DNA of 64,000 bases from an uncultured Alphaproteobacteria bacterium (GTDB lineage Bacteria > Pseudomonadota > Alphaproteobacteria > Rs-D84): positions 21,280 to 85,279 of the forward strand of contig CALXOX010000003.1 in assembly GCA_944390125.1 (NCBI GenBank), read 5' to 3'. Below are positions 62,147 through 63,318 of this stretch, in pieces. Below the pieces are notes generated by a model. It saw only the letters and a program-made list of their open reading frames with translations, was not told where the DNA came from and made no database searches. How positions within the stretch are numbered: position 1 is the stretch's first letter; each line of letters starts with the position of its first letter. A program made the position numbers and the translations under genes.

Positions 62147-62584
62147 ATGAAAACACGCTTAACACTAATTTGTTTCGTTTGTGTTACATTGCTTACACCT
62201 GCATACTCTGCAGTAAAATGCATTCCGCACACATCATATCCATCTTGTTGGGACCCTTTATTTGAACCGTATCAGACTGACTGGTTATATACATGTCGGG
62301 GGTTTGGAAGTACTAACACTGATAACATTATAAAAGGTGTTGGATTTTGCAGTAATCAATATAAAGCGGAAGACACCATTAGCGATTCAATCACGTTTAG
62401 TTCAAACATATCAGAAAACGCTTATTGTTGGTGTAAAATGTTAAGTCCAGTTGTATCTAAGTGGATTTCTACTGGTGATTATGTAAGTACATACGAAGAT
62501 TGTATTGAAACATGTACTTGGGTATGCACCGATTTTAGCTTATATAACCCGCCTTTTATCTTTAATAGTTCTTTTTCGGATTAA
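62147..62584 (+). CDS. Small secreted Cys-rich protein, family-2 copy 1
   Basis: Start at the internal ATG (MKTRLTLICFVCVTLLTPAYSA) with SD AAGGGAG. Shares the ..YCWCKMLSPVVSKW.. and C..TC.W.C motifs with copy 2. Confidence 0.55.
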   Translation: MKTRLTLICFVCVTLLTPAYSAVKCIPHTSYPSCWDPLFEPYQTDWLYTCRGFGSTNTDNIIKGVGFCSNQYKAEDTISDSITFSSNISENAYCWCKMLSPVVSKWISTGDYVSTYEDCIETCTWVCTDFSLYNPPFIFNSSFSD

Positions 62585-62595
62585 GGAGATTTGTT

Positions 62596-63024
62596 ATGAA
62601 GAAATGCAAAATATTTTTATTAGTATTCTTAATTAACTATATTAGCGTACATCCTGCTATGTCGGTCACGAAATGCATAAATCTGTCAGCTTCAACAAGA
62701 TGTACCTCAGGAAGTGTAAAAGGTTCTTCTAATTGGAGTGCAAATTGCAGCGGTGTGGCCGTGGAGGGAATTGCATACTGCAGCAGCACAAGTGGAGCGC
62801 GTGGTAAAACCGCAAACTCTATTACACTGGATAGCACTATCCCGGAAAACAACTTGGTATGTTGGTGTAGATTAACTAATCCGGCTGTATCAATGTGGAC
62901 TCTTGCCCAAGTGACTGGTAGTGCGTCTAATTGTGTTACCAGTTGTGCACAAGGTTGCGTGAATCTATTAACAACCAATGATACAACCTTTAAACAAGGA
63001 ATTGTATCAACGCTTTCTAATTAA
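62596..63024 (+). CDS. Small secreted Cys-rich protein, family-2 copy 2
   Basis: SD AAGGAG. Signal peptide. VCWCRLTNPAVSMW and CVTSCAQGC are paralogous to the copy-1 motifs. Confidence 0.55.
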   Translation: MKKCKIFLLVFLINYISVHPAMSVTKCINLSASTRCTSGSVKGSSNWSANCSGVAVEGIAYCSSTSGARGKTANSITLDSTIPENNLVCWCRLTNPAVSMWTLAQVTGSASNCVTSCAQGCVNLLTTNDTTFKQGIVSTLSN

Positions 63025-63036
63025 AGGAGAAATGTT

Positions 63037-63318
63037 ATGAGAAAAATTATAATGTTTTTTATAGTTCTTTTTCCATTTAGGGTGGATGCTTTGGAGTTAT
63101 TAACCACATGTCCTGCCGGATATAAAACTATAGTTGAGCCAAATATGGTAGTTGCAGAAAGTTCTTGCCCGTCTGGTTATGTATCAGTCGGTACAGCAGA
63201 TAGTTGTTTGGTGTCTAGTCCAAATGGCTCATGCTTGCTGTTTGCGAAAGCAAACACCGAGTACGAGGATGATTCCGGGACTTTTGTTTTTACATCAATA
63301 TGTGAAATGACAGAATAA
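63037..63318 (+). CDS. Small secreted Cys-rich protein (93 aa)
   Basis: SD AAAGGAG. Signal peptide. Six Cys (TCPAGY, SCPSGY, SCLVSSPNGSCLL, SICE). Confidence 0.5.
   Translation: MRKIIMFFIVLFPFRVDALELLTTCPAGYKTIVEPNMVVAESSCPSGYVSVGTADSCLVSSPNGSCLLFAKANTEYEDDSGTFVFTSICEMTE

Follow-up and report, generated by a model that had tools for sequence, protein, structure and literature searches.

Attenuation leaders and riboswitches are built on a terminator/antiterminator platform, for example with the 1:2, 2:3 and 3:4 pairing logic of the trp type and with three-way-junction aptamers. On the protein side, a Sec signal alone brings a Gram-negative protein only to the periplasm. The nearest entry in the collection of known RNAs to one of the leaders described below is sRNA-Xcc1, which has been described as a Xanthomonas sRNA that is carried by integrons and acts in trans (PMC2996969). 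The order Rs-D84 comprises uncultured gut Alphaproteobacteria with genomes below about 1 Mb that are thought to be partner-dependent, and Ca. Enterousia has been assigned to it (PMC12306168).

The window, by which we mean the whole stretch of 64,000 nucleotides that was analyzed, has two arrays of genes for small Cys-rich proteins. Our main reading, to which we give a probability of roughly one half, is that the genes g1, g2 and g3 at 62-63 kb are one operon for a two-part exported module under the control of a leader switch, and that its products are most likely variable binding proteins at the surface or released from the cell.

The g1-g2-g3 operon and its two protein families

The 3 back-to-back genes of the original prediction are present as open reading frames on the forward strand (Table 1). 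Their lengths had been given as 146, 142 and 93 aa, of which the second and third were correct and the first should be 145, the stop codon having been counted. The canonical Shine-Dalgarno sites named for them are all in the sequence: AAGGGAG for g1 at 62132-62138 and, each overlapping the stop codon of the preceding gene, AAGGAG for g2 and AAAGGAG for g3. The spacers are 11 nt (g1/g2) and 12 nt (g2/g3), and no terminator-like site was found between the genes. Because of these short spacers, a Shine-Dalgarno site for each gene and a sole terminator that lies downstream, g1, g2 and g3 are one operon. A weak -35 box, TTGTTT, is found 17 nt upstream of the putative -10 box, also as a consensus match only. 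All 3 proteins have a predicted signal peptide, judged by eye and by a hydrophobicity script, with a basic N-terminus, a hydrophobic core and A-x-S or V-x-A ahead of the cut. A lipoprotein reading was rejected since no lipobox precedes the first Cys, which has K as its -1 residue. The operons are scattered among housekeeping genes, for example groEL, dnaK, pfk and ackA.

Table 1. Features of the two arrays and their leaders in the window
Feature	Position	Strand	Description and basis
Promoter-like site TTGCAA-17 nt-TATCAT	48354..48382	+	Upstream of second leader; consensus match only
Leader copy, canonical type 1	48390..48567	+	Directly upstream of the 48.6-50.7 kb array
Segments of type 1 copy	H7 (TGATGAC) 48416-48422; B 48470-48479; H7' 48524-48530; A' 48532-48540	+	
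Three tandem ~210-aa predicted secreted Cys-rich proteins	48591..50681	+	Behind second leader; C-terminal motif shared with g3
ORFs of the ~210-aa proteins	48591-49235, 49308-49937, 50040-50681	+	48.6-50.7 kb array
Putative -10 box TATAAT of g1 operon	61896..61901	+	Consensus match only, read from sequence
5' leader of g1, divergent type 2	61905..62125	+	Nucleotide conservation, model R1 match, folding energy
H7 (TCGAAAA) within GGGACTTCGAAAATCCC	61937..61943	+	Perfect complement to H7'
Segment A (CCCGGC)	62005..62010	+	Candidate anti-antiterminator arm pairing with B; A:B covariation
Segment B (GGTCGGG)	62016..62022	+	Pairs with A or A'; three-way covariation of A, B, A'
Hairpins P2 (CGCAG...CTGCG) and P3 (GGTCAT...ATGATT)	62027..62081	+	Inside B:A' helix
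H7' (TTTTCGA)	62081..62087	+	Junction ahead of A'; heptamer test
Segment A' (CCCGACC)	62092..62098	+	Candidate antiterminator arm; overlaps terminator 5' arm by 4 nt
Leader intrinsic terminator GACCACCAA-ATTTGC-TTGGTGGTT then TTTGTTT	62095..62125	+	21 nt before g1 start
g1	62147..62584	+	CWC family, 145 aa; predicted signal peptide cut after AYS; mature part with 9 Cys
g2	62596..63024	+	CWC-family paralogue of g1, 142 aa
g3	63037..63318	+	Conserved small partner, CPxGY family, 93 aa; predicted signal peptide; 5 invariant Cys
Bidirectional terminator	63318..63344	.	Common to g1-g2-g3 operon and convergent groEL

That g1 and g2 are clear paralogues, as had been proposed, is borne out by BLASTP (E = 2e-15, 27% identity), and the motifs quoted for them are present. 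The gene g3 had been counted in the same Cys-rich CWC array, and here the assignment changes: g1 and g2 are members of the CWC family, but g3 is outside it, in a separate, more conserved family that supplies a conserved partner subunit (43-52% identity to relatives in other genera). The density of secreted Cys-rich genes had been called unusual; a tandem Cys-rich array with predicted export is indeed there, but its unit is an operon module and not just a dense cluster.

The remote-homology search that the original prediction proposed gives a CWC family of 646 clusters at 50% identity (exhaustive profile search, E ≤ 1e-3). Single-protein word-index searches had retrieved near-identical sequences only, so the exhaustive profile search was needed to reach distant members. 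No curated family claims these proteins. For g1-g3, Pfam has weak matches only (best E = 0.07), NCBIfam has none at E ≤ 1 and PHROGs none at E ≤ 0.01; the precomputed Pfam entry is empty for all 106 homologues, and a PDB profile search matches the signal peptide only. The best Pfam match for g3 is cEGF at E = 0.07, with E = 0.008 for the same model against a g3/CWC fusion, P0110; neither is significant. The named CWC members are all hypothetical proteins and all come from Alphaproteobacteria MAGs. There are several copies per genome, up to 6-7, and at least 7 divergent copies of the module can be assigned to one genome, judged by contigs that match in coverage within a single human-gut assembly. 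Homologues that are widespread periplasmic housekeeping proteins would have spoken against a host-interaction or envelope role; instead, the CWC family is clade-restricted, multi-copy and fast-evolving. The CWC/g3 gene pair is present in many copies and was seen in no group but gut Alphaproteobacteria, whose genomes are in some cases very small; one of its carriers is a Ca. Enterousia MAG (L004).

The 2 families are strictly paired, with a g3-family gene following the CWC genes in almost every related locus. A g3-like gene of 90-97 aa is directly 3' of the CWC gene or genes in the window, L001, L002, L004, L007-L016 and L018, and again in L022, L024, L026 (twice), L028 and L030; in L017 it is about 900 nt further downstream. 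Natural CWC/g3 fusions also exist (P0091, P0110 and L005 10264-10989). Nine Cys are found in 67 of 84 standalone CWC proteins, 5 Cys in 13 of 13 g3 proteins, and 14 in the fusion P0110. The odd counts, 9 and 5, suggest that one intermolecular disulfide links CWC to g3. AlphaFold2 models the g3 part of a natural g3-CWC fusion with pLDDT 44-69 (pTM 0.61), a low confidence that leaves a CWC/g3 complex without structural support.

The CWC domain by itself is modeled well, g2 giving pLDDT 85.9 and pTM 0.76. The predicted structure is an alpha/beta fold, a five-stranded sheet packed on a C-terminal helix, for which Foldseek finds no match in PDB or BFVD. From the Cys spacing, the helix (C-x3-C-x3-C) would be stapled to the sheet by disulfides with the C-W-C strand.

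The link drawn earlier to the 48.6-50.7 kb family also holds up. The 3 Cys-rich ORFs of about 210 aa are real, they stand behind the same class of leader, and their C-terminal motif is common to g3 (hhalign probability 90.7%), a likeness found by profile comparison only, pairwise BLAST of g3 against this family being not significant. C-P-x-G-Y/F motifs occur in both.

Variability of the CWC proteins and their possible roles

CWC proteins are 27-40% identical across genera, and they vary mostly in the 64-87 loop and the Cys helix, on a fixed scaffold. The dN/dS of g1 and g2 is 0.29-0.37, against 0.01-0.06 for neighboring genes. CWC paralogues are near-identical at their 5' ends and differ downstream. 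Two sources that one might think of for such variability or for the proteins themselves were rejected. A diversity-generating retroelement would need a TR/VR-like repeat, which is absent from 44-64 kb, and the gene tables of related loci list no reverse transcriptase. A phage tail-fiber or receptor-binding protein, or a phage origin generally, fails on the lack of IMG/VR relatives and of a PHROG match.

The domain is not confined to small proteins. Repeats of it are found in a 784-aa protein and in one of 4750 aa, which also has Flg_new repeats and ends in an endonuclease I; the W-x3-C cysteine is absent from the internal repeats of the giant proteins. A C-terminal endonuclease is a layout typical of polymorphic toxins, which brings up the alternative that CWC and g3 work together as a secreted effector, toxin or antimicrobial against competing bacteria or a eukaryotic host and have no part in adhesion; CWC would then be active or do the targeting, and g3 would carry or help it. 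Small, exported, Cys-rich, multi-copy and fast-evolving proteins would suit such a role, as would the apparent recent exchange of g2-g3 between lineages, where dS is 0.03-0.15 against 0.8-2.0 for the flanks. We consider it unlikely, because the profile searches detected no toxin, immunity or secretion-system family, an adjacent immunity-like gene is absent, and the internal, repeated position of the domain in giant proteins is what one expects of a binding module more than of a warhead.

Could these instead be periplasmic or envelope housekeeping proteins of the clade, engaged in redox chemistry, metal handling or envelope structure, whose variability is drift in small genomes? The predicted export signal is of the Sec type only, the operons do sit among groEL, dnaK, pfk and ackA, and Cys is a large share of the encoded residues. 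This explanation is quite improbable, given the 7 or more divergent copies in that one human-gut genome, variability patterned on a fixed scaffold, a domain that occurs in giant extracellular proteins, the failure to find the CWC family outside Alphaproteobacteria MAGs, and a dedicated switch that, as read from the sequence, appears to gate expression.

A leader RNA common to both arrays

Upstream of g1 there is a structured 5' leader with an MFE of -76.2 kcal/mol (z = -4.4), whose nucleotide sequence is conserved ahead of the CWC genes of other genera (L004, L006). A canonical copy precedes the 48.6 kb array (MFE z = -4.7). We distinguish these as type 2 and type 1. MAFFT alignments mis-registered segment A and both P2 types, so the covariance model R1 was built from 5 type 1 leaders only; it scores the 48.4 kb copy at 66.2 bits over 48455-48567 (E = 1e-15) and the g1 leader at 25.6 bits over 62000-62125 (E = 1e-4), the latter being a type 2 copy of the sort that it under-scores. 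The leaders are about 180-220 nt long and are kept across genera upstream of CWC genes that encode only ~30% identical proteins. Of 25 copies, 23 are followed within 90 nt by the start of an ORF that has a signal-like N-terminus and 5 or more Cys, the likely start being about 19-35 nt downstream of the leader.

The leader has alternative pairings. Segment B can pair with A or with A', and A' overlaps the arm of an intrinsic terminator on the same strand as the genes. In the g1 leader its stem (62095-62118) is followed by a T-run, and in the type 1 copy the terminator ends at 48563. Over 23 leaders, the A:B helix is 97.5% paired with 6 of 7 pairs covarying, A:B plus terminator pairs in 89% of cells with double changes in 17 of 23 pairs, and B:A' plus P2 and P3 pairs in 90% of cells with double changes in 15 of 21 pairs (none of 500 shuffles attains as high a value), these counts being inflated because the alignment was fitted to a model of the terminated state, outside which the B:A' and heptamer pairs lie. 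The main B:A' helix, with pairs absent from the search model, has 87.9% of cells paired and double changes in 6 of 8 pairs. For P2 and P3 in the g1 leader, the basis is single-sequence folds, covariation with L004 and L006, and the weak alignment to sRNA-Xcc1 described below. A long-range pairing between H7 near the 5' end and H7' at the junction was assessed by a positional heptamer test, which replaced a naive longest-helix search that was too noisy; 19 of the 23 leaders have a perfect H7:H7' match, with 13 different heptamers, while non-cognate combinations are perfect in 1 of 328. The helices include G-U pairs, which indicates pairing at the RNA level.

The terminated fold is favored by 6-11 kcal/mol at full length; at the decision point in the g1 leader it is favored by only 1.9 kcal/mol. 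The P2 loop GAAUAUnnnGAAUAA is conserved in type 1 leaders only and is replaced in the g1 leader, which speaks against a single, simple ligand pocket that all copies have kept. Nor is the switch obligatory: L030, a close relative (PBP1 89% identical), has a CWC-CWC-g3 operon without the leader.

As to known regulatory RNAs, the type 1 copy at 48.4 kb has no match among 4227 Rfam families, and a T-box or other known riboswitch was rejected on the lack of an Rfam match. A leader-peptide attenuator of the trp/his type was rejected as well: an 18-codon ORF at 48445 that spans A, B and P2 is not conserved, L008 having ATG-ACA-TAA and L005 no ATG.

The g1 leader does match sRNA-Xcc1 (RF02221) over 62016-62106 at 34.2 bits (local E = 2.6e-4), where the gathering threshold is 53 bits. 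The alignment covers the whole 87-position model, and like sRNA-Xcc1 the leader has an outer stem closing 2 hairpins, followed by ACC. With the terminated transcript preferred thermodynamically, one could take the element for an independent trans-acting sRNA gene with its own terminator, placed ahead of these operons by chance or providing no more than a promoter. That is improbable: apart from the sub-threshold score, the match is restricted to the window lineage (the window and L002), and the leaders of L004, L005 and L006 and the 48.4 kb copy give none, so that membership in sRNA-Xcc1 was rejected. The element and the signal-like ORF that starts so near it always share a strand, and a covarying B:A' helix that overlaps the terminator arm is a hallmark of cis control. 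A trans role for the terminated leader product may exist beside that. Scarcely credible is a role for A, B and A' as DNA sites at which a recombinase inverts segments or exchanges cassettes for phase or antigenic variation, a role suggested by A and A' being direct repeats with B their inverted copy, by paralogues that diverge after near-identical 5' ends and by the signs of g2-g3 exchange, since the helices tolerate G-U pairs, covariation is seen independently in P2, in P3 and in the heptamer pairing, the B to A' segment is only ~55-70 nt and no recombinase gene is linked in the examined loci.

A terminator between promoter and start, a covarying helix that overlaps it and conservation in distant genomes are the features of a terminator/antiterminator cis-leader. 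The leader is a putative, previously undescribed RNA switch that would control both Cys-rich arrays, and the direction of switching would be as follows.

Proposed mechanism and comparison with known systems

From the upstream promoter, the structured leader of ~220 nt would be transcribed first. In the default fold, A:B would be paired, the 5' GGG(G)-heptamer region would be paired with the junction and A', and the terminator would form, stopping RNA polymerase 21 nt before g1. An effector, which might be a metabolite, a protein or an RNA, would favor the B:A' helix that closes the P2/P3 junction; this helix would strip 4 nt from the terminator stem and allow read-through into g1-g2-g3. With the same switch before the 3 genes at 48.6 kb, both arrays would presumably come on together. 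The proteins g1 and g2 would be alternative versions of the variable subunit and g3 the conserved small subunit, and we infer a conditionally expressed surface or extracellular complex in which a variable CWC "head" sits on a conserved g3 "base," perhaps through a disulfide. The operons have no dedicated export system linked to them. Most likely, the products would go beyond the periplasm, either to stay on the cell surface or to be released from it, and would serve as variable binders in contact with a partner or host cell. The giant extracellular proteins, the pattern of variability and the partner-dependent lifestyle proposed for Rs-D84 suggest a possible host-interaction or envelope role.

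At least 7 copies of a secreted variable module are a large investment for one genome and make it an obvious candidate for partner contact. The covarying switch, absent from Rfam, would link at least 3 kinds of secreted proteins into one regulon, and its effector, once found, would reveal the signal for surface remodeling. The CWC domain joins a confidently predicted fold (pLDDT 86) with no Foldseek match in PDB/BFVD to more than 600 sequence clusters. A bolder reading, possible but less likely than not, sees in the leader a new RNA switch class that senses a ligand or factor and governs a whole surface-protein regulon in gut Alphaproteobacteria akin to Rs-D84, an order that is genome-reduced and partner-dependent, and in CWC/g3 a disulfide-linked heterodimeric adhesin of new fold whose variable helix determines the partner or host cell to which the bacterium attaches.

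Among known proteins, the variable surface proteins of Giardia, ciliate surface antigens and the Cys repeats of ephrin-receptor-like and furin-like type are likewise multi-copy and exported, with a fixed Cys scaffold and variation between the Cys, and the C-P-x-G-Y/F motifs of g3 and the ~210-aa family add to the likeness. Unlike those families, the proteins here have no significant Pfam repeat model, and CWC has its own alpha/beta fold without a Foldseek match. By analogy, one might also think of AB-type or head-plus-adaptor adhesins, where a variable larger and a conserved smaller subunit would be adjacent, occasionally fused and with an odd number of Cys each, although the module has no homology to any such family and its complex and disulfide are conjectural. 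The leader stands closest to attenuation leaders. It has, like them, an intrinsic terminator just before the Shine-Dalgarno site, an alternative helix built partly from the terminator stem, a third segment that sequesters the antiterminator, and a helix junction with a long-range loop pairing, all backed by covariation. It differs from them in having no leader peptide (by eye; short ORFs are not conserved), in standing before genes for secreted Cys-rich proteins rather than for biosynthesis or transport, and in a long-range heptamer that is hypervariable between copies.

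The g1-g2-g3 operon

The original prediction placed three back-to-back genes with Shine-Dalgarno sites at 62 kb, and they are there: g1, g2 and g3 lie on the plus strand, each behind a Shine-Dalgarno site, with spacers of 11 nt between g1 and g2 and 12 nt between g2 and g3. No terminator-like site was found in a search between the three genes, and the sole bidirectional hairpin stands between g3 and the convergent groEL. By eye and by script, all three N-termini resemble type I signal peptides: the start is basic, a hydrophobic core follows, the cut site is small-x-small, and no lipobox is seen. 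The proposed paralogy of g1 and g2, whose family we call CWC, is borne out by BLASTP (E = 2e-15, 27% identity), and nine cysteines align between them, all past the predicted signal-peptide cut. The antisense ORFs overlapping g2 and the first of the ~210-aa genes, which form the other array of secreted cysteine-rich proteins, are probably spurious products of codon bias.

Selected features of the window
Feature	Position	Strand	Size or score	Remark
g1	62147-62584	+	145 aa	CWC
g2	62596-63024	+	142 aa	CWC
g3	63037-63318	+	93 aa	CWC partner
Bidirectional hairpin	63318-63344
g1 leader, model match	62000-62125		25.6 bits	divergent type, common to L004 and L006
H7/H7' of g1 leader	61937-61943/62081-62087
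Second leader	48390-48567			canonical type
Second leader, model match	48455-48567		66.2 bits, E=1e-15
H7/H7' of second leader	48416-48422/48524-48530
Three ~210-aa genes	48591-50681
Antisense ORF over g2	62637-62978	-	113 aa
Antisense ORF over first ~210-aa gene	48657-49289	-	210 aa
Ankyrin-repeat protein	42971-44644	-	557 aa
Lower-GC block	30737-40007		GC 0.34-0.37
ORF	26070-28508		812 aa	no Pfam match

The assignment of g3 to the same family does not hold, as g3 is a partner of CWC and not a paralogue. In almost all related loci, one or two CWC genes are followed directly by a g3-type gene of 90-97 aa; the exceptions are L006, L019 and L021, which carry divergent CWC forms, and L017, in which a g3-like gene lies further downstream. 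Natural CWC-g3 fusions occur in proteins P0091 and P0110 and at L005 10264-10989. The structure model of a fusion did not settle the g3 part. Across genera, g3 keeps 43-52% identity as against 27-40% for CWC. Nine cysteines are found in 67 of 84 standalone CWC proteins, g3 has five invariant ones, and fusion P0110 has 14; the CWC repeats inside giant proteins are without the W-x3-C cysteine. We infer from sequence that a single intermolecular disulfide may join the CWC and g3 subunits. A 22-residue C-terminal motif is common to g3 and the ~210-aa family (hhalign probability 90.7%, E = 1.2e-6).

Distribution and divergence of the CWC family

Neither g1, g2, g3 nor the three ~210-aa proteins has a significant match in Pfam or NCBIfam. 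Word-index searches return only near-identical proteins, from three sequencing runs. Of the contigs that carry these, L001 and L002 have the gene order of the window (GNAT gene, methyltransferase-like gene, g1-g2-g3, groEL), with groES additionally visible in L001; the third contig, L003, is just 1.4 kb long and breaks off at g1. L002 (3332-3889) and L003 (73-630) encode an additional protein of 185 aa, located after the methyltransferase-like gene and before the g1 leader. It carries a CxxCxxCC motif and is missing from the window and from L001.

An exhaustive profile search yields 646 clusters at E <= 1e-3, of which 272 also pass E <= 1e-10; the majority are 135-160 aa long. The named members are all hypothetical proteins of Alphaproteobacteria MAGs, with up to six locus tags from a single assembly, and a genome scan adds relatives in Ca. 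Enterousia excrementavium, a roe-deer cecum alphaproteobacterium and a Rickettsiales MAG. One human-gut assembly has seven or more copies, and the contigs that carry them are equal in coverage; a search of viral contigs brought up no relatives. The domain also forms internal repeats within giant proteins, including a 784-aa protein with four copies and a 4750-aa protein that combines CWC repeats with Flg_new repeats, CPAGQY...C..C..G.YCPG modules and a C-terminal endonuclease I.

Sequence entropy in CWC peaks in the 64-87 loop and in the helix bearing C-x3-C-x3-C, while the signal peptide, N-terminus, CWCKMxSPAVSxW and C-terminus are conserved; the same mosaic is seen among paralogues of one genome. 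Searches for DGR-like repeats found none. When the window is compared with L002, g1 and g2 have dN/dS values of 0.29-0.37, as opposed to 0.01-0.06 for groEL and the methyltransferase-like gene. Over window 62596-63318 against L002 4778-5497, g2-g3 has a dS of 0.03-0.15, and because this is far below the 0.8-2.0 of the flanking genes, it suggests that this part of the operon was recently recombined or transferred between lineages.

A leader RNA with two predicted states

In many database entries the N-terminus has been called too long, so that the same upstream stretch is translated; this prompted an alignment of the upstream DNA. A leader of ~180-220 nt is kept before CWC genes across genera in which the proteins are just ~30% identical. 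It opens with GGG(G)UG, heptamer H7, CC(C) and a variable hairpin, continues through segments A and B, hairpins P2 and P3 and the complementary heptamer H7', and closes with segment A' and an intrinsic terminator, the Shine-Dalgarno site and start codon following ~19-35 nt on. Segment B has two possible partners, A and A', of which A' overlaps the 5' arm of the terminator by 4 nt, and single-sequence folds of different homologues adopt one state or the other. A limit of this picture is that the two leader types have dissimilar P2 loops.

In an alignment of 23 sequences, the B:A' structure has 90.0% of cells paired and double changes in 15 of 21 pairs, a value reached by 0 of 500 shuffles, with slid controls at 34-53%; the A:B plus terminator structure has 89.3% paired and double changes in 17 of 23 pairs. 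Since the B:A' pairs are absent from the covariance model, built on five leaders, the model-fitted alignment does not favour them. Within the fixed GGGGTG-[H7]-CC, H7 has a perfect Watson-Crick H7' complement in 19 of 23 leaders (13 different heptamers), compared with 1 of 328 non-cognate combinations. Heptamer pairs vary between the leaders of one genome (13 in 23 leaders) within fixed flanks. Both window leaders are far more stable than shuffles (z = -4.4 and -4.7). At full length the terminated fold is preferred by 10.6 kcal/mol in the 48 kb copy and 6.1 kcal/mol in the 62 kb copy, and just before the terminator forms the preference is 8.7 and 1.9 kcal/mol.

Rfam contains no match to the canonical leader, and a literature search on an RNA element of this kind in Alphaproteobacteria brought up nothing of relevance. 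The g1 leader weakly matches sRNA-Xcc1 over B to A' (62016-62106, 34.2 bits, threshold 53), an identity we reject as sub-threshold and without a match in homologous leaders.

A covariance model search places a leader before nearly every CWC operon, and the top match in the window is the 48 kb copy, not the g1 leader. The 48 kb copy ends 23 nt before the first ~210-aa gene, so that both cysteine-rich arrays of the window stand behind one kind of leader; in other loci, leaders precede homologues of the ~210-aa family (L015, L005) and a secreted protein resembling a fibre (L021). Within 90 nt downstream of the leader, 23 of 25 copies have the start of an ORF whose N-terminus is signal-like and whose product has five or more cysteines. 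At L021 3519-5186, the leader is followed by a 212-aa secreted protein with a T-x-K-Y-V-D-D motif and then by a 336-aa protein joining the same N-terminal region to a C-terminal CWC domain. As counter-evidence, L030 has a leaderless CWC-CWC-g3 operon (9540-10788), which lies elsewhere in the genome and follows an ordinary promoter-like site; L030 is from an organism closely related to that of the window, with 89% identity in PBP1 and the local synteny preserved. After the third ~210-aa gene, a fourth copy of the 30-nt sequence encoding the C-terminus (50794-50823) may be left over from a fourth paralogue that was lost.

A proposed regulon of secreted proteins

The leader, one or two versions of a variable CWC subunit and a conserved g3 subunit constitute a real conserved operon module. 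The module is part of a putative regulon for secreted cysteine-rich proteins that occurs in gut-associated Alphaproteobacteria, a group to which the genome-reduced order Rs-D84 belongs. Another gene of the window encodes a protein made almost wholly of ankyrin repeats, which are uncommon in bacteria and usually tied to interaction with eukaryotic cells. The lower-GC block of the window, probably a locus for a surface polysaccharide, contains group 1 glycosyltransferases, RgpF-like rhamnan synthesis domains (among them a fusion of 1124 aa) and an ABC exporter.

No paper was found that mentions the CWC family together with Rs-D84. In the literature, the account that comes closest to these organisms proposes that they live in dependence on a partner, and it points out numerous hypothetical membrane proteins that might serve cell-cell interaction (PMC12306168). 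The main rival explanation is that CWC and g3 are a secreted effector or toxin pair. We favour a variable surface-binding complex that would be expressed conditionally, given the occurrence of the CWC domain in giant proteins, the pattern of variability and the partner-dependent lifestyle proposed in the literature. The libraries searched contain no description of this RNA motif, of either protein family or of the predicted fold, while the mechanism proposed for the leader is of a known kind, that of terminator/antiterminator leaders.
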